64,000 nt of DNA from a virus. Where the stretch lies: IMG/VR virus record IMGVR_UViG_3300037521_000114, positions 37,195 through 101,194 of that record, one strand, 5' to 3'. Both the position numbers and the translations under genes were made by a program. Of this stretch, positions 37,005 through 62,389 are shown in pieces; the first letter of the stretch is position 1; each line of letters starts with the position of its first letter. The notes below the pieces were generated by a model. That model worked only from the letters and a program-made list of their open reading frames with translations, ran no database searches and was not told the DNA's origin.

Positions 37005-37353
37005 TGGTTTTTGCGTTTTTAATGTAAATTTTCCATTTATGAATTTCCTTATTCCTCTGAATACGAGGATTCTCTTGACGAGCCTTGAACTCCTTGGATA
37101 CCTTCTGTGAATAGGAACTGATACGAGCATCAATATCCTCCACAGGAAACAGTCGTTCGGTAAACGATTCATATCCGTATTTATTTATAGTCATAAACCT
37201 TACACGTACCTCTTTCCCATCAGAGTACACACCTGCTGTCTTCCAAGTACTCAAGAATTTAGCGTAGAATCTCACAAGCCTATCCAAGTAGATAAGTTTA
37301 CAAACGAGGTCTTGATGTACACCTCCATTGATAAGTTTGAAAACTTTGAGCAT
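36991..37353 (-). CDS. Hypothetical protein
   Basis: 120 aa ORF preceded by a promoter box. Confidence 0.55.
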   Translation of the reverse strand: MLKVFKLINGGVHQDLVCKLIYLDRLVRFYAKFLSTWKTAGVYSDGKEVRVRFMTINKYGYESFTERLFPVEDIDARISSYSQKVSKEFKARQENPRIQRNKEIHKWKIYIKNAKTNADI

Positions 37354-54295: not shown

Positions 54296-55330
54296 ATGGC
54301 ATTTTCTACACCTGACAGTAAACTTACCAAGGAAAATATTCTCAAGAAACTTGATAGCTATCAGCTATTTAAGGCTTACTGCAAGAATTTTGTAGCTCTT
54401 GATAAGATGTTCAAAAGTGAGTTTCGTAAGGATAGTAAACCATCGTGCCATATCATCGTATGGGAAGGAGACCTTCTATATAAAGATTTTGGAGATAAAG
54501 GATACCGTATATTTGATTACATCGGACGTAAGCATGACACTGATTTTTTAGGAGCATTGAAAATTGTGAACAAAGACTTTAATTTGGGTCTTGGTTCTAC
54601 CTCAATGAGTAGTCCCTCTCTGGTAACTCCGGAGAGGGCTACTTTTGATATAGATCAATTTGAACGTAAACCTACAATTATTGATGTCAAGAAACGTAGA
54701 TGGACAAGTGCAGACAGAGCATATTGGGCACAGTATGAAATACCGCCAAAGCTCCTATTGTATCATAAAATCTACTCTATTGAAGCCTACATGATTGACA
54801 GTAAATTTCAGGATAATGTATCCTATCGTGTCAATCCCTACCAACTTGTCTATGTAATGGATTACTATTGGCACGATGGTATATTCCGAAGGAAGTTATA
54901 CTTTCCTCAGAATACAGGTAGAAATAGATTCATATCCAATGTCGATAATACTATAGTACAGGGATGGACTCTCCTTCCAAAGAACGGAAGTGACATTCTC
55001 TTCGTAACCAAGAGTTATAAGGATATTTTGACCTTTAACTTACATGGTTATTGGGCGATAGCTCCCAATAGTGAACAATCGTTTATACCAGAACAAGTAA
55101 TGGATAAACTGAAGCAAAGATTCAGTAACATATTTGTGTGGTTCGATAACGATGAGAGTGGTATAGATGGTGGCAAATCCTTTGCAAAAAGATTTAAGCT
55201 GATTTCTACTCATAATCCTATTGGTGAACCTAAAGACCCTTCTGATTACGTGAAAGAATATGGCTCGAAAGAGTTTGATACACTTGTAACTCAATTCTTA
55301 GATGAACGACATAATAGTTATCGTCCGTGA
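54296..55330 (+). CDS. DNA primase (TOPRIM)
   Basis: FRKDSKPSC, YKDFG, TKSYKD, WFDND, KDPSD. Confidence 0.85.
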   Translation: MAFSTPDSKLTKENILKKLDSYQLFKAYCKNFVALDKMFKSEFRKDSKPSCHIIVWEGDLLYKDFGDKGYRIFDYIGRKHDTDFLGALKIVNKDFNLGLGSTSMSSPSLVTPERATFDIDQFERKPTIIDVKKRRWTSADRAYWAQYEIPPKLLLYHKIYSIEAYMIDSKFQDNVSYRVNPYQLVYVMDYYWHDGIFRRKLYFPQNTGRNRFISNVDNTIVQGWTLLPKNGSDILFVTKSYKDILTFNLHGYWAIAPNSEQSFIPEQVMDKLKQRFSNIFVWFDNDESGIDGGKSFAKRFKLISTHNPIGEPKDPSDYVKEYGSKEFDTLVTQFLDERHNSYRP

Positions 55331-55796
55331 CTTTGAGTATAGGTATTGTTTAGCAAAGAAGACAAGAAAGACAGGGAATCCTAAGTGGTGGACTATCAAT
55401 GGTCAAGGACTATATAGTGCTACCCTACATTTCCGAGCCAGAGATAAGCTAACAAAGTATTTCCACAAGTATCTATCAAAATATATCAAGCGACAGATTT
55501 CCAGAGAACAAATTATCGAGCTTAACAATCACATTTTTCCCGGCTCATCCTTAAAACTATCCATTTCCTTAGACATTTACGACATACGTAGAGGCAAGAT
55601 GCCTGACGTGAGTAATCTATGGTTATGGACCAAATGGTTTGAGGACGCTTTGCAGGAGTCACGAATAATTCCGGACGATAATCCGGACTATGTACAGGAA
55701 AGCGGACGCACTCGCTATCATTTCGTTGATAGTCAAGAGGAGCGTAGACTCGTTTTCAAATTGAGACTTATAGATATTAACAAAAAAACCTTATGA
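55302..55796 (+). CDS. RusA-like Holliday junction resolvase
   Basis: PDVSNL..KWFEDAL...IIPDDN. Confidence 0.7.
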   Translation: MNDIIVIVRDFEYRYCLAKKTRKTGNPKWWTINGQGLYSATLHFRARDKLTKYFHKYLSKYIKRQISREQIIELNNHIFPGSSLKLSISLDIYDIRRGKMPDVSNLWLWTKWFEDALQESRIIPDDNPDYVQESGRTRYHFVDSQEERRLVFKLRLIDINKKTL

Positions 55797-56578
55797 TCAT
55801 GAGGAAAGCAATATTGAAATTGACCACCCAAAAAGACCTGATCAATCATCAAACCGATGCAAGAACATTCGGTGAGCTGAAAAAAGAAATGAAGCAGGTC
55901 AAATGGAGTGGAATGAGGGTAGTGGAACGTTCCACTAAAGCTACTCTTCAGATGGACGATGCTACTCTCCCACAGGGAGATTTCGTCCTGTTTCTTGTAC
56001 CTGAGAAGGTCAAGAGTGGAAAGAAAACCAGTGGTGGTACTGAGGAACTCAGCAAGAATATTGAAGAGTGTTCCTACAATGAGTGTAGGAGTCACATGAG
56101 CTGGTTGAACCGGAACAAGGATGCAAATCTGGATATGTCCGGTGGTACTGCTTCCCTTCAGATGCAGTTGAGCAAGTATTACAAGAAGAATCCTGCTGGT
56201 ACATCTGCTACTAAGAAAGTAGCTCCAAAAGCAGCTCCTAAAGCTGAGGCTAAGAAGCCTGTAGCAAAGAAGCCTGAACCTGCTCCTGAAGCTGTTCCTG
56301 AAATGAGCAAGAAGGAGAAGAAAGCTGCTAAAAAGGCTGCGAAAGCTGCTAAAAATCAGCAAGAAGAAGCTCCTGTACCAACCGATCCTATCGAGATCAT
56401 TGAAGCATCTCGTGAGAAGATCAACAAGGCTGTTGATCAGATCGTGCTGGAATTGATTGAGAATGGTGGAACTGTACCTGCTGTACTTCAGTACACTGAG
56501 GATGATCTCAACAAAGAGATGAATAAAATCCACAATGCACTGAGAACCAGTAGGACTAATGCAGTTTACATCCAGTAG
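55793..56578 (+). CDS. Putative ubiquitin-like (beta-grasp) protein precursor with C-terminal extension
   Basis: First ~76 aa follow a beta-grasp pattern (TFGELKKEM helix, DDATLP, FVLFLVP strand) ending KVKSG; then a small helical domain and a K/A/P-rich tail; first gene of the E2-JAB-E1 cluster. Confidence 0.65.
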   Translation: MIMRKAILKLTTQKDLINHQTDARTFGELKKEMKQVKWSGMRVVERSTKATLQMDDATLPQGDFVLFLVPEKVKSGKKTSGGTEELSKNIEECSYNECRSHMSWLNRNKDANLDMSGGTASLQMQLSKYYKKNPAGTSATKKVAPKAAPKAEAKKPVAKKPEPAPEAVPEMSKKEKKAAKKAAKAAKNQQEEAPVPTDPIEIIEASREKINKAVDQIVLELIENGGTVPAVLQYTEDDLNKEMNKIHNALRTSRTNAVYIQ

Positions 56579-56600
56579 AAGTTGTTTGTGGTTTTTACAT

Positions 56601-56641
56601 GAAGGGGTGTGAGGGAGTGATCCTTTGCACCTCTTCCTTTT
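56601..56641 (+). terminator. Strong hairpin (terminator/attenuator) between Ubl and E2 genes
   Basis: 16-bp stem GAAGGGGTGTGAGGGA / TCCTTTGCACCTCTTC with GTGA loop, followed by CTTTT. Confidence 0.6.
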
Positions 56642-56653
56642 AAATAGATAGCT

Positions 56654-58687
56654 ATGAACATAGATCAAAACGAAAGACCTGAAGAAGGACCTGATGAAGA
56701 GGAAATTACTGATCATCAAGCTGTTGCTGATGTACTTAGTAATGGAGAAACTTATGAGAATCTTACTTTAGATGGTTTAAGAGAAGTTGTAGAGGATGTT
56801 TTAGGAGAAGCAGATGAGGAAGTTGTACAAGAAATGGCTCAAGTTGAAAGGATTTTAGATGCTTCTGATACAGCAAGAGTATCACGGATTGATACGTCAA
56901 TGATTCCACCGGGAATGAGTGTAGAAGATTATGTAGAACATTATCGAGCTACAGGAACTCTTATTACTGAATCCACTGCTATTCCATCATCTTATCAAGG
57001 TAGTTCTACTGACGCAACTAATGTGTCATCACCTACTCAGACAACTGATGCAATAGCACTTGATGAGGAACTGGCTCAAACTATCGGTAGATTGGTTGAT
57101 GAGGGTACAGTTGTAATTGATCCAGAGGAAGGTGCTGCTGTCATATTAGGTGGAGAGGAACAAAAACCTGAACCACCAAAAGATGAGACTCCCAAGCAGA
57201 GGAGAGCAAGACAGCGTAAGGAAAATCCTGATCATTACAAGCAGGTTGCAACCCTTCATCTTGCTGATAAGCATATTCGTCAGAAAATGCAACTCAGGCA
57301 AAAGACCAGAGTAATGATTAGTGATGGTACTGTGAAGCCTAATGAACTGTTTATCACTACCAATGGGATTATATTCTCAACAAGTGATGAGATTACTTTC
57401 AACAATCCTAATATGACACAGCACACTATCATATTTGACAAGAACTTTAATGAGATTTCTTCTGTACGAAGTAAATCACATCGCTTTAAGCGAGTGTACC
57501 TGAAGCAGATAGGTCTCGATAATGTTCGTGCAAATCCTAATATTCATAAAGGAGTTGTCGTTGAAAGAGATGTGTTTATGGAATCCAAAGGTCGGAAATT
57601 GAAAATTATCCGAAGAAAAGATATGCCTTTCCATAGTATTATGCAATGCAGGAAAATTATCGTAAAAGGTTTTGAAAGAGCAGAGAGAAGTATCAACTGG
57701 TTAGTATCAAGTTTAAGGAATGTTTTCCCGGAAGAAGACTTTGATGTATTCTATCCGGTAAGCAACCATGATACTGAAGTTATGTTCACTATTATGATGC
57801 GTTTCAGAGATATTGAAATAACAAATTCGATTGAACTGACACATCAGATTGGTGATATGATTGTCAAGATGTATGGTACTTGTTATCCTACAAAAGAAGG
57901 TGTTAGGGTAGCAATGTCATCAGGTGTATATGGAACCAGAATGACATTCGATATAACAGATGCTATTTCAAAATATCAACATTCTCACCTTCCTTCAGCA
58001 CTGAACAACTTTAATAGTTTCTGTACAGGAGAACAATATTATGGATCAGACGGAATGTTAGATAACATGACATTTGAATCACTTCTGTATCGTCTTGGTG
58101 AGCTTGTCAGGTGGGAATCCCTTGAGGGTGGACCACACATGAGGATGGAGAATATTTCATTACTTGGAAATAGGTTTAGTCTAAAAAGCGATTTTAGTCG
58201 TAAAGACGGATACACAAAAAGGCTTATTCATGTTATCAAAGAGAAGCCTGAAGGATTCGATGTATTTGCAAGCTGCTTCTCTATCTATAATGATAAGGGT
58301 GTAGTACGTTTTAGAGCTGATAAACCAAGATTTTACTCGACATTTATTAAAACTATTGGTAAGCAGAATATCAAGAATATTCATGCTTCCTCAGGTATGG
58401 ATTTATATTCTTATGATGAATCTACTAATGTTTTCAAGATGATTAAATCACGAAGGGTAAATAGTCCGAAAGAAATGCGTAAAAAGGCAATCGCTAATTT
58501 ACAATCCTTTCAGCCTATCTATATGAATGGAAAGTATAATCGTATAATACTTGATAGTACTGATTCTGAAGACCTTATAAATCAATTAAATTTGTGCCCT
58601 CATCCTAATACGATGGATGATATTGCGAACCATATACTGTTTAAATTAACTGAAAAATTAAATGAGCATGGGAAAACCAGCGAATAA
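56654..58687 (+). CDS. Putative E2/UBC-like conjugating enzyme with long acidic N-terminal extension
   Basis: YQHSHLP-x-FCTG (H443-x-H445, C457) resembles the E2 HPN/HPH...C motif; then a helix and WESLEGGP; sits between Ubl and JAB genes. Confidence 0.6.
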   Translation: MNIDQNERPEEGPDEEEITDHQAVADVLSNGETYENLTLDGLREVVEDVLGEADEEVVQEMAQVERILDASDTARVSRIDTSMIPPGMSVEDYVEHYRATGTLITESTAIPSSYQGSSTDATNVSSPTQTTDAIALDEELAQTIGRLVDEGTVVIDPEEGAAVILGGEEQKPEPPKDETPKQRRARQRKENPDHYKQVATLHLADKHIRQKMQLRQKTRVMISDGTVKPNELFITTNGIIFSTSDEITFNNPNMTQHTIIFDKNFNEISSVRSKSHRFKRVYLKQIGLDNVRANPNIHKGVVVERDVFMESKGRKLKIIRRKDMPFHSIMQCRKIIVKGFERAERSINWLVSSLRNVFPEEDFDVFYPVSNHDTEVMFTIMMRFRDIEITNSIELTHQIGDMIVKMYGTCYPTKEGVRVAMSSGVYGTRMTFDITDAISKYQHSHLPSALNNFNSFCTGEQYYGSDGMLDNMTFESLLYRLGELVRWESLEGGPHMRMENISLLGNRFSLKSDFSRKDGYTKRLIHVIKEKPEGFDVFASCFSIYNDKGVVRFRADKPRFYSTFIKTIGKQNIKNIHASSGMDLYSYDESTNVFKMIKSRRVNSPKEMRKKAIANLQSFQPIYMNGKYNRIILDSTDSEDLINQLNLCPHPNTMDDIANHILFKLTEKLNEHGKTSE

Positions 58688-59870
58688 TAAAAAAGAGAAG
58701 GTTGAATATCCCCTGTATGAGATGGAAGAAAAAGGTAAATTGATTTTGCCACCTGAAATCTTATCACAGATTACATTCCTTCATTCCCATGTTGGGAGAA
58801 CGGAGTGGTCAGGGATGCTATTGTATGATGTGATCAATGGTAATCCTTCAAAGCCTGAAACTTTCGAGCTTGAGGTAAAACACATTTTCCTGATGGACAT
58901 TGGTTCAGCAGCTTATACCGAATATGAAGCAGATGGTGACATTGTGGACATCTATGACAACATTCCTGAAGCAATGGAATGGAAGACAGGTCATGTTCAC
59001 AGTCATCATGATATGACCACATATTTCTCTACTACAGATATGGGTGAACTTCACGATAACGTGGATAAGCACAACTATTATCTGTCTCTGATCGTGGCTT
59101 TCAACGGCAGTTATACTGCTAAAGTTGCGTTCCTGAGTGACATGGAGACTACATCCAAGATGACTTTCAAGGATGATTCTGGTAACATCAAGAGTTTCAA
59201 GCAGAAGAAAATGGAGAGGCACATGGTTGTTATCAACATGAGGATTCTGTTTGCTGAACTTGGTGGATTCTTTTCTGCTCGTTTAACTGAACTTGTTGCA
59301 AAAGAAGAAGCAGCAAAGGAGGCAGCAGAAAAGGCAGCAGAAAAGGAAAGAACGAAAGCTGGTTATAAATATGGAGGATATGGTGGTCAACACAATAGTC
59401 ATTTCCATAATCAGAATATGGATGAACTTCCACGTCATTCTATCGGGAGTAAAATCATTCCTGACAAAATGACATCTTGGGAGATCGAAAACCTGACAAA
59501 AAGCATATTGATGCTTGAGGCTCATCCAGCAGGAAACGTCTATTCAATTCTGCATCAGGTGGCTCGTGAGGATCAGAATATGGACCTTTATCCAGACTAT
59601 TTAATGTGTAATGCCGAAGCTATAATTGATGAGTATTTTGATGATCCTTTAGCTGACGATGAATATGCTATCGTCATAAAAGAATGTATCATGTGTATCA
59701 AGAAATACGAAGGCGTTGTTGCTCTTGCACCGATTACCACAGTAATTTGTGAATCTCTCGCTGTAATTGCTCAAGGATACGAGGAAGGCGGTGTGCGTGA
59801 GGTTGACCAAGAGGATGAAGGAAGCATAGCAGCACAACTGGAAAAAGCAGAAAAGGAGCTTAAATTATGA
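58662..59870 (+). CDS. JAB/MPN (JAMM) metalloprotease
   Basis: TEWSG glutamate plus HSHHDMTTYFSTTD, an exact HxHx7Sx2D motif. Confidence 0.88.
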   Translation: MSMGKPANNKKEKVEYPLYEMEEKGKLILPPEILSQITFLHSHVGRTEWSGMLLYDVINGNPSKPETFELEVKHIFLMDIGSAAYTEYEADGDIVDIYDNIPEAMEWKTGHVHSHHDMTTYFSTTDMGELHDNVDKHNYYLSLIVAFNGSYTAKVAFLSDMETTSKMTFKDDSGNIKSFKQKKMERHMVVINMRILFAELGGFFSARLTELVAKEEAAKEAAEKAAEKERTKAGYKYGGYGGQHNSHFHNQNMDELPRHSIGSKIIPDKMTSWEIENLTKSILMLEAHPAGNVYSILHQVAREDQNMDLYPDYLMCNAEAIIDEYFDDPLADDEYAIVIKECIMCIKKYEGVVALAPITTVICESLAVIAQGYEEGGVREVDQEDEGSIAAQLEKAEKELKL

Positions 59871-60556
59871 TAGATGTAAAACAATCAAGATTCCGTGATG
59901 CTTCGTGGTTTGAGAAACTATCGAAGTACACGGTTCCTATCATTATTGGAGGCGTGGGAGGAATAGGTAGCTGGTTGACTCTTTACCTTTCGAGGATGAT
60001 GGGACCAGACAGCTACCTTATTCTCTACGACTTTGATAAAGTAGAGGAAATAAACATGGCTGGACAACTGTTCAGGATTCAGGATATAGGTTTGCTGAAA
60101 GTTGCTGCTGTAAAAGATGTAGTAGCAGCGTTCAGTGGTTACGATAAGATCGTAGCACAACCTGATCGGTATGATGAGGATTCCCTGAGGAGTCCTGTCA
60201 TGTTCTCCTGTTTCGATAACATGAAAGCGAGAAAGGTAATGTTCGAGAATTGGTTACAGGAAGCTGAGAAGTATCCTGAATCCATATTCATCGACGGTAG
60301 GTTAAACGCAGAGCAATTCCAAGTATATTATGTTACTCTTGAATGGGCAAAAAAGTATTCCGACACTTACCTTTTTGATGATGCAGAGGTCGAGGACGCA
60401 GCGTGTAGTTATAAGCAAACCAGTCATTTTGCTGCCTCCATCGCTGCGAAAATGGTCCAAGGATTCACGGGGTTTCTTGATGATACTTACGAACTCCCGT
60501 TTCGGTACGAAGAGATCGGACCATTGTTCTTAACAGAAATTGATAATGGAAGCTAA
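59867..60556 (+). CDS. ThiF/MoeB/E1-like adenylating enzyme
   Basis: GVGGIGSW, DFDKVEEINMAGQ, K, CFDNMKAR, DGR, candidate catalytic Cys in DAACSYK. Confidence 0.9.
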   Translation: MIDVKQSRFRDASWFEKLSKYTVPIIIGGVGGIGSWLTLYLSRMMGPDSYLILYDFDKVEEINMAGQLFRIQDIGLLKVAAVKDVVAAFSGYDKIVAQPDRYDEDSLRSPVMFSCFDNMKARKVMFENWLQEAEKYPESIFIDGRLNAEQFQVYYVTLEWAKKYSDTYLFDDAEVEDAACSYKQTSHFAASIAAKMVQGFTGFLDDTYELPFRYEEIGPLFLTEIDNGS

Positions 60557-61328
60557 GGATATTTGCAACATTCGTGACAGTGTCTATAATGGGTCACATG
60601 CGATAGATTCCGAGATTGGATTTAATATTCATGACGGATATTACCCTTTGCCTCGTATTAAGACACAGTACGATTCATCAAAGAACCCTTATTTTAGAAC
60701 TGCCTGTCAAAGTCAATATGGAGGATCACGAATTACTGATAACGTATATTACCAAATAAGTGGTCCGGGACAATCCATGAAATATAAGAAGACAAGACGC
60801 TATAGTGATGCAAAATTTGTCAACTTCTATTTCGGATTTTTTACTGCATTGGGAATTACTCAACTTGATTATCTTCCAACAACTATGCTTGGTTCAACAG
60901 AACACATGATGTTTGGAGAACCAGACGTTTTCTGTATAGGAGTAGTTAAAGTAGGTGCACCTATTGATGTTAAATTGACGTATCAAAATCATGCTCGTCG
61001 AAGTAGTCGTTACGTGTATCATTCAACCAGTTATGAAATAAAGATAAACTACAAGGATATTATTATTCTTGTTTCTGAAGAAAAATTACGAAGAGCAGCT
61101 TTTGCAAAGACATATTACACAGCAACCGTAAGAAAAGCAATTTTAGGAAATTTATTGAAACTTCAACGTAAACATGGAATGGCATTTGAAGATGTCCCTG
61201 ACGCATATCTGAAGAATTTCGTAAAAAGTTCTAAGTCAATTAGAACGAACTCCTTAGTTGAAACCTTGACTATCGGTAGAGATATTAAGGAGAATGTATT
61301 TTCTAACCTTAATAAATTAGCAGTATGA
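60540..61328 (+). CDS. Hypothetical protein coupled to the E1 gene
   Basis: 262 aa; overlaps both neighbours. Confidence 0.6.
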   Translation: MIMEAKDICNIRDSVYNGSHAIDSEIGFNIHDGYYPLPRIKTQYDSSKNPYFRTACQSQYGGSRITDNVYYQISGPGQSMKYKKTRRYSDAKFVNFYFGFFTALGITQLDYLPTTMLGSTEHMMFGEPDVFCIGVVKVGAPIDVKLTYQNHARRSSRYVYHSTSYEIKINYKDIIILVSEEKLRRAAFAKTYYTATVRKAILGNLLKLQRKHGMAFEDVPDAYLKNFVKSSKSIRTNSLVETLTIGRDIKENVFSNLNKLAV

Positions 61329-62389
61329 CAGAACAAGAGTATCGCGCACTTGACCGTGTGAGCTATTCGTCACTCTCTAAGTTAGCAAGTTCACCACAGG
61401 CTTACAAAGCAGGTGTTGAGGGTCAGAAGGAAGAAACTTCCTACATGACTCTCGGCACTGTGGTGGACATGCTGCTAACTGACAAAAAGAGATTTGACGA
61501 TGAAGTTTACGTGATGACAGCAGACAAACCTTCTGCTGAGACAATGCTAATGTATTGTAATACTTTAGCTGAGACAGGCGACTCAATAAAAGCCTATCAA
61601 GCATCAGGATATAAGATTAGTCCTAATGCAGTATCAACTAAATTTGATAAAGAAGGCAGAGCATATTTTGACGCATTACTTGACGCAAAAGGAAAATTGA
61701 TTATTGACGCAGATGGAATGTTTACAGCAAATCAAATTGTAGCAGAGCTTACCTCAAACTTATTTACTAAAGGATATTTTCTACCAACCAGATCACCAGA
61801 TATTGAACTCAAATTCCAAGTCCCAATCCTATGGGAAGTTCAGACTAAATCTCTTATTGATCCTGAAGAGATAGTAACTACCGAACTCAAGAGCCTTCTT
61901 GATGTGGTGTTTATTGATCATAGAAAAGGATTAGTGCTTCCTGTTGATTTAAAGACAGGTGGAGAAGGTTTCATGAAATCCTATTGGAGATACCACAGGT
62001 ATCTACAGGGAGCTATGTACACTGATGCTGTAAGAGGTAGGAGGTGGCAGAGACATGATGAAGCTGAACGTGAATACGAAGTAGAACCCATGAGGTTTGT
62101 CTTCGCTGACACAAATCTGATACATCCTCCTGTAGTATGGTGTATGAGCCAATTAGATGTTCTCGGAGGAAAAGAAGGAATACCATATCTTGCACTACGA
62201 CCAGGAATTTCAGCAGGTGGAAAAGATGAAATGGTATGGGTTCCTACCGACAGAATAAAACGCAAAGGATATTTACAACTGATTGCAGAATTAGATTGGC
62301 ACACTAAAATGGACCAGTGGCGTTACTCTTACGACACCTATCAAAAGAATGGTGAAATGGAGATTGACGCATTTGAAATAAGAATTTAA
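61325..62389 (+). CDS. PD-(D/E)XK exonuclease (RecE/Cas4-like)
   Basis: SYSSLS, LGTVVD, KSLLD, VDLKT, YLQGAMY. Confidence 0.8.
   Translation: MTEQEYRALDRVSYSSLSKLASSPQAYKAGVEGQKEETSYMTLGTVVDMLLTDKKRFDDEVYVMTADKPSAETMLMYCNTLAETGDSIKAYQASGYKISPNAVSTKFDKEGRAYFDALLDAKGKLIIDADGMFTANQIVAELTSNLFTKGYFLPTRSPDIELKFQVPILWEVQTKSLIDPEEIVTTELKSLLDVVFIDHRKGLVLPVDLKTGGEGFMKSYWRYHRYLQGAMYTDAVRGRRWQRHDEAEREYEVEPMRFVFADTNLIHPPVVWCMSQLDVLGGKEGIPYLALRPGISAGGKDEMVWVPTDRIKRKGYLQLIAELDWHTKMDQWRYSYDTYQKNGEMEIDAFEIRI

Follow-up and report, generated by a model that had tools for sequence, protein, structure and literature searches.

The complete 101,194-bp genome of a crAss-like phage from marine sediment (IMG/VR record IMGVR_UViG_3300037521_000114; CheckV 100%) carries, in its replication module, a candidate cassette for ubiquitin-like (Ubl) activation and conjugation. 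The DNA analyzed here, referred to as the window, is the right-hand 64 kb of this record (64,000 nucleotides, positions 37,195 to 101,194), in which all genes lie on the + strand from ~40 kb onward. Nearly identical DNA is present in two metagenome studies of marine sediment. The cassette consists of four open reading frames (ORFs) that encode a Ubl precursor (ORF1), a Cys/His protein that is a candidate E2-like carrier (ORF2), a JAMM metallopeptidase of the JAB type (ORF3), and a minimal E1-like adenylating enzyme (ORF4) (Table 1). An original prediction, made from the nucleotide sequence alone, had described a complete conjugation operon of four consecutive + strand genes at positions 55,793 to 60,556, the last three overlapping, and these coordinates are borne out by the list of ORFs. 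The motifs it had named are also present, i.e., the KVKSG end of the Ubl domain, H443/H445/C457 in ORF2, an exact JAMM motif in ORF3, and a nucleotide-binding motif and a Cys in the E1. The description as a complete operon has to be qualified, as a fifth conserved gene follows the E1 gene and a terminator-like hairpin follows the Ubl gene.

Relatives of the E1-like protein were found in 78 GenBank phage records and 371 IMG/VR contigs, the former including the Bacteroides phages crAss001, DAC15/17, and PhiCrAssBcn, several uncultured "cr" phages, and the FpV phages of Flavobacterium psychrophilum. ORFs were called in 83 loci anchored on the E1 gene and searched with iterated hidden Markov models of the window proteins, which recovered ORF1 in 79, ORF2 in 80, and ORF3 in 82 loci; the order ORF1-ORF2-ORF3-ORF4 was found without exception, and the misses coincide with contig ends. 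The same cassette occurs in a phage context, wherever the flank suffices, at 15 further loci on contigs from metagenome-assembled genomes (MAGs; binned as Bacilli, Chitinophagales, Flavobacteriales, Clostridium, and several archaea). Strict four-gene synteny thereby extends to ~95 loci in total, with crAss001, Flavobacterium phage FpV4, and IMG/VR contigs among them, so that the genes named in the original prediction are indeed co-conserved in a fixed order. This strict order and co-occurrence, together with the invariant motif residues in diverse alignments, argue that the cassette is more than a chance assemblage. The annotated order of products in crAss001, bajarodcaudo virus 1, and FpV4 is primase, hypothetical, hypothetical, "metalloprotease" or hypothetical, "ThiF"/E1, and hypothetical. 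The ORF2 family comprises 3,314 clusters (50% identity, E ≤ 0.001) and the ORF1 family more than 116 clusters; judged from these sequence families, the cassette is common to thousands of related phages. A blastn search with the 4.8-kb cassette region against phage records gave no match.

Several occurrences outside the better-known phage records were observed as well. Contigs with the cassette (L084, L088, L089, L098; P0095, P0100) fall into MAG bins of the archaeal groups Heimdallarchaeaceae, Promethearchaeia, Nitrososphaerota, and Acidilobaceae, and also of Bacilli, Clostridium, and Bacteroidota. These assignments probably result from mis-binned phage DNA, and they could also hint at hosts. 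Two loci lie within contigs of 640 kb (L087) and 374 kb (L091), which could reflect integration or chimeric assembly. A more distant E1 relative (31% identity over 74% of the query) is encoded by jumbo phages of Xanthomonas (PhiXhv-16 and Ep026; H39/H40) and Erwinia, and the ORF2 model gave weak matches in BFVD (E ~5e-3 to 1e-2) to the uncharacterized jumbo-phage proteins S5VME3, A0A1S6L3A1, and A0A384ZWL6. A related gene set may be present in Xanthomonas and Erwinia jumbo phages.

The Ubl precursor, the JAMM peptidase, and the E1-like enzyme

The first 76 residues of ORF1 are confidently predicted to form a ubiquitin-fold domain. In the AlphaFold2 (AF2) model (m588e8dcc14f9), residues 1–70 have pLDDT values of 91–97 and follow the strand and helix order of ubiquitin (strand-strand-helix-strand...strand), while the tail of residues 71–80 is modeled with low confidence. 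The best Foldseek matches of this domain in the PDB are ubiquitin variants, ubiquitin, NEDD8, SUMO, DWNN, and DIX domains (target-normalized TM 0.6–0.7, root-mean-square deviation (rmsd) ~2.1 Å over 75 columns, probability 1.00), with an E value of only ~1e-3 because the domain is small. VIA-align against 48,161 chains returned exclusively beta-grasp structures among its top 50 (Z 7.0–9.0), nearly all of them with rmsd values of 2.0–2.9 Å over 64–76 residues. The beta-grasp assignment, which had rested on motif and context when it was made, is thus upheld at the fold level by the model and by both structural searches. The crAss001 counterpart of ORF1 is gp79. Scans of the single protein with the Pfam, NCBIfam, and PADLOC libraries found nothing for ORF1, and a search for shorter relatives returned just three proteins, which were located on short contigs and proved uninformative.

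Residues 1–76 are strongly conserved among 34 close relatives from the lineage of the window, with the consensus end ...FLVPEKVKSG and an invariant Gly76, and the divergent family has K-x-[KR]-[SA]-G at the same position in all loci; no columns other than Gly76 and Leu59 are invariant across 56 diverse ORF1 sequences. Past this point the sequence varies, and the passenger ranges from 1 to ~240 residues across the family. Three relatives encode a stand-alone Ubl in which the Gly is followed by 5, 1, and 1 residues, respectively (L012, ...KVKSG-NEKKH; L089, ...NVKSG-N; L092, ...EKVKSG-K), and the persistence of so few residues beyond the Gly speaks for processing to a C-terminal Gly. An invariant Gly at the end of the fold, followed by a passenger of variable length, is the pattern to be expected of a modifier that is exposed by proteolysis. 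The Ubl of locus L097 ends in Gly-Gly (KKIKGG), and the true start of ORF1 in the window may be Met3 (P0019), which would shift the numbering by 2.

The passenger of the window phage is composed of a short linker, a SAP-like two-helix module, a Lys/Ala/Pro-rich tract, and further helices. The pattern of the module (SYN-x-LRSH...G....LR..L..YY) is conserved and coincides with helices 95–108 and 119–132 of the model. Its name, SAP/HeH, is taken from the motif alone, as Pfam gave no significant match.

The JAB call for ORF3 is confirmed by an invariant catalytic motif, as all five JAMM residues are kept in 29 diverse ORF3 sequences, and by matches of 27 of these 29 family members to the Pfam model Prok-JAB (PF14464; E ≤ 1, best E 1.4e-5). 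The match of the window protein itself is weak (E 0.036, 14.4 bits, below the 25-bit cut-off) and was its sole match in Pfam, NCBIfam, and PADLOC, and no JAB chain was found when the JAB profile was searched against PDB sequences. The C-terminal half of ORF3 is helical and poorly conserved. Its counterpart in crAss001, gp77, is annotated as "metalloprotease domain".

ORF4 matches the Pfam model ThiF (PF00899) with an E value of 2.9e-12 (46.7 bits against a cut-off of 28.1), and its family profile recovers UBA5 as the best PDB match (E 9e-10), followed by MccB, PaaA, TcdA, and ThiF. Residues R8, G29/G31/G32, D55, D57, N63, Q67, K78, D117, and R122 are retained in 82 of 82 sequences, a set that covers the N-terminal Arg, the Gly-rich loop with the nucleotide-binding motif G29-x-G31-G32, and the Mg-binding Asp. 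The residue at position 180 is likewise Cys in every sequence, and with these adenylation residues it substantiates the ThiF/E1 assignment of the original prediction. Cys180 sits 12 residues ahead of a helix that HMMER aligns to the helix after Cys250 of UBA5, and this UBA5 Cys is located near the C-terminus of the crossover loop (PMC11601596). By this helix register, in which the loop itself is not aligned residue by residue, Cys180 would be the thioester cysteine. The E1s of gut crAss-like phages carry an N-terminal extension of ~50–155 residues (crAss001 gp76, L001:6563-7714; L002:6860-7714), which the 229-aa forms in marine and Flavobacterium phages lack. GenBank labels the E1 as "thiamine biosynthesis protein" and the JAB protein as "metalloprotease". 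In these genomes, a "Thiamine biosynthesis protein ThiF" should almost certainly be read as an E1, and a "metalloprotease" as a JAB maturase/isopeptidase.

The candidate E2-like carrier and alternative readings

ORF2 is the least secure member of the cassette. Its conserved part spans residues ~331–677, and 47 diverse sequences share the invariant residues N391, S444, H445, C457, G459, E488, S489, G492, and P494. The HxH...C motif of the original prediction therefore holds for H445 and C457, which are present in 47/47 sequences, but only partly for position 443, which is His in 40 and Gln in 7 of them. Homologues from gut and Flavobacterium phages have ~400–445 aa (~420–445 aa for crAss001 gp78 and FpV4). 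Residues 1–330 of the window protein (positions 56,654–57,643) form an acidic low-complexity extension followed by a beta-rich stretch with the motifs FDKN..., RDG.RIY, and GR..K.K.R, and such an N-terminal extension was seen in the marine-sediment clade only (proteins of ~570–770 aa).

The AF2 model of residues 331–677 (me2e8a8a011ee; pLDDT 91.5, pTM 0.83) begins with a long helix, which is followed by four antiparallel strands, the [H/Q]SH loop, the Cys, a helix, and a further alpha/beta domain; the UBC fold has its elements in the same succession. C457 is placed 12 residues after H445 and 14 residues before the following helix (model residues 141–156), the latter spacing being the same as in UbcH5 and UbcH7; Cap2-type E2s have a conserved His 8 residues before the Cys (His-x7-Cys). 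The modeled position of C457 fits that of an E2 catalytic Cys. VIA-align superimposed the core nearly end to end on E2 structures (120–134 residues, 3.9–4.9 Å, Z 4.0–4.4), for instance on UbcH7 (121 residues at 3.9 Å) and UBE2G2 (127 residues at 4.2 Å), and also on Ubc7, Ubc9, UFC1 (Z 4.0), and Cdc34. About 10 of the top 50 matches among the 48,161 chains are of the UBC/UEV/RWD type, which by a rough estimate is many times the share expected from the PDB. A role as a Cys peptidase of clan CD or CE was considered and rejected on the spacing from His to Cys, which is far wider in those peptidases than in ORF2. A zinc site formed by H443, H445, C457, and E488 was likewise considered and not adopted.

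A number of results weigh against an E2-like ORF2. The placement of C457 depends on secondary-structure register, and the top VIA-align matches of the core are unrelated proteins (Med17 and the actin-capping protein CapZ alpha) with Z scores of 5.7–6.1, above those of the E2s, whereas VIA-align's own note puts any Z < 8 within the common background. Foldseek against the PDB gave no match at E ≤ 0.001, and Cap2 ranked 3rd (E 0.09) and Ubc15 39th. Pfam and PADLOC scans of 36 members of the ORF2-core family detected no E2 model (UQ_con, Prok-E2_A-E, Cap2/Bil) even at E ≤ 5, and the profile of the core found chance matches only among PDB sequences. When compared by hhalign with a profile of five Cap2-type (Prok-E2_B) domains found in 401 Bacteroidota genomes, the core scored a probability of 0.25%; this target profile covers Prok-E2_B only. 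Beyond these comparisons, the core had no usable match in the ESM Atlas, Foldseek against BFVD recovered uncharacterized crAss-like proteins only, and scans of the single protein with Pfam, NCBIfam, and PADLOC gave nothing, the sole library match of ORF2 being a PHROG of unknown function.

The weak E2 matches nevertheless carry some weight, because UBC-type chains are over-represented among them and because BubB, a proven diverged E2, resembles canonical E2s no better (3.8 Å over 104 Cα atoms against UBE2D2 and 4.3 Å over 120 against Cap2; PMC11601596). Weighing the modeled topology against the scores, we consider ORF2 probably an E2-like carrier, the weakest call of the cassette. The E2 claim of the original prediction is thus matched by the modeled UBC-like topology and by the position of the conserved Cys457, but not by the fold scores (Z ~4, against ~6 for unrelated proteins) or by any link between sequence profiles.

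Were ORF2 not a carrier, the Ubl could be activated without an E2 step: the JAB and E1 proteins would process and adenylate it, the E1 (or its Cys180 thioester) would transfer it directly, and this would leave ORF2 as the main target, as an adaptor, or as a Cys/His enzyme that is unrelated and only happens to co-occur. Such a route would accommodate the contrast between the well-supported Ubl, JAB, and E1 proteins and an ORF2 with no sequence link to E2s and with background fold scores, as well as the fifth conserved gene, which shows that the cassette has parts outside an E1/E2 scheme. We regard it as unlikely. In ORF2, conserved His and Ser residues precede the invariant Cys within the loop that connects a beta-meander to a helix, an arrangement characteristic of E2 active sites and not of passive targets; ORF2 is as strictly co-conserved as the enzymes; and the strong over-representation of UBC/UEV/RWD-type chains among its structural neighbors also has to be explained.

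An alternative that we rate as quite improbable is a sulfur-carrier pathway of the ThiS/MoaD, CysO, or QbsE type, in which the JAB peptidase would expose the Gly, the E1 would adenylate it, a host persulfide donor would convert the Ubl into a thiocarboxylate, and ORF2 would use this sulfur to modify a nucleotide, DNA, tRNA, or a small molecule required for replication. The E1 is indeed of the minimal ThiF type, its closest NCBIfam models are ThiS adenylyltransferases (all far below their cut-offs), and it scores about equally against ThiF-type sulfur-carrier models and UBA5, a further point against a conjugation pathway; yet its nearest solved relative, UBA5, is a protein-conjugation E1. Sulfur-carrier Ubls are known to have JAB peptidases as partners (Iyer et al. 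2006, PMC1779556), and MoaD chains do occur among the structural neighbors of the Ubl domain, but this domain is structurally closest to ubiquitin, DIX, and UBX and not to ThiS or MoaD, and its tail is K-S-G instead of the Gly-Gly of ThiS, MoaD, and Urm1. While the replication-module setting would suit a modification of nucleic acids, ORF2 resembles no known sulfur-insertion enzyme, and no rhodanese, cysteine desulfurase (Aminotran_5), PP-loop ATPase (ATP_bind_3), or ThiG was found in the complete 101-kb genome by searches that did not include MoaE and whose positive controls matched in 13–14 of 14 genomes. The earlier statement that no thiamine, molybdopterin, or tRNA-thiolation genes lie nearby is thereby extended to the whole genome for these four families. 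Host enzymes could supply the sulfur.

It is highly improbable that the cassette has no modifier function, with ORF1 acting as a DNA-binding replication protein with a beta-grasp interaction domain, the E1-like enzyme adenylating another substrate (a peptide or nucleotide, as MccB, PaaA, and TcdA do), and the JAB protein maturing other phage proteins, since the presence of MccB, PaaA, and TcdA among the PDB relatives of the E1, the frequent use of beta-grasp domains as adaptors (DIX and UBX are top matches), and the >100 residues after the Ubl domain in most phages are set against an invariant Gly that in every relative falls precisely where the beta-grasp ends, a passenger that varies or is absent (L012, L089, L092), and strict four-gene synteny with JAB and E1, which together are the hallmark of a processed modifier.

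The intergenic hairpin, the fifth gene, and flanking genes

Within the 75-nucleotide gap between ORF1 and ORF2, a pattern scan identified a hairpin with a 16-pair stem and a 4-nucleotide loop, followed by CTTTT. Its predicted RNA fold has a free energy of −31.3 kcal/mol (z = −5.4), which none of 200 shuffled sequences equaled. By a strict pattern, a hairpin with a T-run is found at this junction in at least 35 of 79 loci, in 24 different sequences, and in only 1 of 82 and 11 of 81 loci at the other two cassette junctions; it is present in crAss001, FpV4, and most relatives (L001, L003, L007-L046, and others). The occurrence of 24 distinct sequences at one junction implies that the structure is conserved without the sequence. 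The hairpin is probably an intrinsic terminator or attenuator after the Ubl gene, judged from this pattern, and the cassette may form two transcription units rather than one operon. Its would-be effect is that the Ubl precursor becomes more abundant than the enzymes.

A gene of 166–434 aa lies directly 3' of the E1 gene in 77 of 81 loci, and 66 of these genes form one BLAST cluster that includes crAss001 gp75 (L001:7714-8526). ORF5 of the window belongs to a clade of six that joins this main family weakly (hhalign probability 49%, E 1.7e-4, 73 columns). The family has almost no invariant residues, which suggests a binding partner or target rather than an enzyme.

The cassette is flanked by genes for a DnaG-type primase and a RusA-like resolvase upstream and for an exonuclease downstream. 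The start of ORF1 overlaps the RusA-like gene by ATGA, ORF2 and ORF3 overlap by 26 nucleotides, and ORF3 and ORF4 again by ATGA. In crAss001 and FpV4, the gene that precedes the Ubl gene encodes a primase or UDG and not a RusA-like protein.

Table 1. Positions of the cassette genes, their functional sites, and neighboring features, in window coordinates unless a locus is named (aa, amino acids)
Feature	Position	Strand	Description
DnaG-type primase gene	54296-55330	+	Upstream flank of the cassette
RusA-like resolvase gene	55302-55796	+	Small gene; matches RusA-like Holliday-junction resolvase PHROGs, E 3e-7
ORF1	55793..56578	+	261 aa Ubl precursor: Ubl domain, linker, SAP-like helices, Lys/Ala/Pro-rich tract, C-terminal helical part
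Ubiquitin-like beta-grasp domain	55793..56020	+	ORF1 residues 1-76, ends KVKSG; predicted by AF2, Foldseek, and VIA-align
Gly76 codon	56018..56020	+	Predicted mature C-terminus and JAB cleavage site; invariant Gly
SAP/HeH-like two-helix module	56069..56191	+	ORF1 residues ~93-133, in the passenger; motif-based name
Terminator-like hairpin	56601..56636	+	ORF1/ORF2 gap
ORF2	56654..58687	+	677 aa Cys/His protein, candidate E2-like carrier: acidic N-terminal extension, beta-rich region, UBC-like core, C-terminal alpha/beta domain
UBC-like core of ORF2	57644..58168	+	Residues 331-505: helix, 4-strand meander, Cys loop, helix
[H/Q]443-S444-H445 ... C457-x-G459 motif	57980..58024	+	Candidate active site of ORF2
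ORF3	58662..59870	+	402 aa JAMM/MPN+ metallopeptidase (N-terminal ~170 aa) with helical C-terminal domain
JAMM catalytic motif	58803..59039	+	E48 ... H113-x-H115-x7-S123-x2-D126 (H113-S-H115 in the window protein)
ORF4	59867..60556	+	229 aa minimal E1-like adenylating enzyme, single ThiF-type domain
Cys180 codon	60404..60406	+	Candidate E1 thioester Cys at the end of the crossover loop; Cys in 82/82 sequences
ORF5	60540..61328	+	Fifth positionally conserved gene; likely start ATG 60546
Exonuclease VIII/PD-(D/E)XK-like gene	61325-62389	+	Downstream flank of the cassette
Stand-alone Ubl genes	L012:4685-4933, L089:3207-3479, L092:2990-3238		82-90 aa; end just past the conserved Gly

Proposed pathway and relation to known systems

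Taken together, the conserved residues and the modeled folds make a phage-encoded pathway for ubiquitin-like activation and conjugation moderately probable. ORF1 would be made as a precursor whose N-terminal 76 residues adopt the ubiquitin fold, an assignment supported at the fold level. By analogy with BubCD and BubAB, the JAMM peptidase ORF3 would cut after Gly76 and free a modifier ending in ...K-V-K-S-G from a passenger of DNA-binding appearance. ORF4, as a minimal homodimer-type E1 with conserved adenylation residues, would adenylate Gly76 with ATP and probably form a thioester on Cys180. The modifier would then pass to Cys457 of ORF2, the least secure step, and the extra C-terminal domain of ORF2 may choose the target, as has been proposed for the E3-less E2s of Bil. 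It could finally be joined to lysines of phage or host proteins, and the JAB peptidase may in addition reverse this linkage. Both the constant position of the cassette next to genes for a primase, a resolvase, and an exonuclease and the Lys-rich passenger with its SAP-like module suggest targets that are bound to DNA or located at replicating DNA, and a counter-defense against host Ubl systems is possible.

The chances appear evenly balanced for a more specific proposal, namely that crAss-like and related Bacteroidota phages run a complete Ubl cascade (a precursor Ubl, a JAMM maturase, a minimal Cys-E1, and an E2 from a new UBC-like family that has its target-binding domain built in) that tags host or phage proteins during replication, and that this would be the first ubiquitylation-type system of a prokaryotic virus, possibly an offensive or counter-defensive mirror of Bil, Bub, and CBASS. 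No description of the cassette was found in the full-text literature, a coverage that excludes subscription journals, and the crAss001 paper makes no mention of the cassette genes. A 2026 preprint refers in passing to a gut-phage protein family that resembles UBA5, and E1-like genes have been reported in Asgard viruses without partners. Prokaryotic ubiquitin-type conjugation has so far been demonstrated in host anti-phage systems (Bil, Bub, and CBASS Cap2), and the same logic appears here in a virus, at a fixed place in the replication module. The cassette is carried by cultured, tractable phages, i.e., crAss001, DAC15, and PhiCrAssBcn of Bacteroides and FpV of Flavobacterium psychrophilum, and by thousands of uncultured relatives from the gut, soil, and marine sediment. 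If protein tagging does take place, a phage group that is among the most abundant in the human gut would control host or phage proteins at a level not seen before; an E2-like family and a precursor architecture, both new, would be added to the known ubiquitin systems, together with a simple model of E1-E2 cascades without E3.

The original prediction had named Bil, CBASS Cap2/Cap3, and PRTRC-like loci as comparators, and these do share its functional roles by analogy, but the cassette belongs to none of them. Bil (BilA-BilB-BilC-BilD; summarized in PMC11601596; Chambers et al., bioRxiv 10.1101/2023.09.26.559546) resembles the cassette in its four separate genes for Ubl, E2, JAB, and E1, in the lack of an E3 gene, with the E2 proposed to pick the target, and in its Cys-based chemistry, which is predicted for the cassette. 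The E1 of Bil is a tandem IAD-AAD-CYS protein, whereas that of the cassette is a single 229-aa UBA5/ThiF-type domain, which the PADLOC model of BilD matches over only ~90 residues (E 0.0027). Bil is a host-encoded anti-phage operon, in contrast to the phage-borne cassette in the replication module of the cultured lytic phages crAss001 and FpV4. The E2-like protein of the cassette also comes from an unrelated, much larger sequence family, and its Ubl has a long passenger.

Type I Bub (formerly 6E.1/DUF6527; BubAB, BubCD, and BubE; Ye et al. 2024, PMC11601596) is closer in the design of the precursor, with a Ubl as the N-terminal part and a JAB cut right after a conserved Gly, which is predicted for the cassette and proven for Bub, in which BubAB is cleaved right behind that Gly by the JAB domain of BubCD (PMC11601596). 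Both have a minimal, homodimer-type E1 that resembles UBA5/ThiF, and the UBC-like core modeled for ORF2, like the diverged UBC fold of Bub, superimposes on canonical E2s only at ~4 Å. JAB and E1 are fused in type I Bub, whereas they are separate proteins in the cassette, encoded by overlapping genes; the passenger in Bub is the E2 (BubAB fusion), and that in the cassette is the SAP-like, Lys-rich protein. Library scans of all cassette proteins gave no match to the DUF6527/BubE protease. Bub works via Ser/oxyester chemistry with an E1 that lacks a crossover-loop Cys (PMC11601596), while the cassette retains an invariant Cys180 in the E1 and Cys457 in ORF2, and Bub is host-borne where the cassette is phage-borne.

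Among eukaryotic systems, the UBA5-UFM1-UFC1 pathway (UFMylation) is similar in that UBA5, the nearest solved relative of the cassette E1, is likewise minimal and has its catalytic Cys where the crossover loop ends. UFM1 has a single C-terminal Gly that is exposed by removal of a short cap, and UFC1 is one of the E2s that align with the ORF2 core. UFM1 is, however, trimmed by Cys proteases and not by a JAMM enzyme, the cassette is without a UFL1-type E3, and no sequence relation of the cassette Ubl or ORF2 to UFM1 or UFC1 is detectable. A phage precedent is the TAPI (Ubl) and TAPK (JAB and NlpC/P60) pair of lambda and T1 (Iyer et al. 2006, PMC1779556), which shares a phage Ubl with a conserved C-terminal Gly, a linker and second domain, and a nearby JAB that has been proposed to release the Ubl of TAPI (Iyer et al. 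2006, PMC1779556). TAPI and TAPK belong to the tail module, have a role in assembly, and lack an E1 and an E2-like partner, whereas the cassette adds an E1 and the Cys/His protein and is located in the replication module.

The four functional roles and the membership in Prok-JAB are shared with the bacterial E1/E2(UBC)-like/JAB/Ubl clusters (Iyer et al. 2006; Pfam Prok-E2_A-E, Prok-JAB, Prok_Ub), which include CBASS Cap2/Cap3 and PRTRC, but ORF2 matches none of the Prok-E2 Pfam models. Type II CBASS has an E2-E1 fusion (Cap2) that acts on a CD-NTase and a JAB protein (Cap3), whereas the cassette has no such fusion; library scans detected no CD-NTase among the neighboring genes, and the E1-E2 models of PADLOC match only the Rossmann part of the cassette E1 (E ≥ 3.5e-5). 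The match to the NCBIfam model PRTRC_ThiF, whose cut-off is 144.75 bits, reaches 33.6 bits, and other PRTRC proteins (A-F, TIGR03735-03742) gave no match at E ≤ 0.1. We regard the cassette as a virus-borne variant of the E1/E2/JAB/Ubl systems in which both the family of the E2-like protein and the design of the precursor are new.

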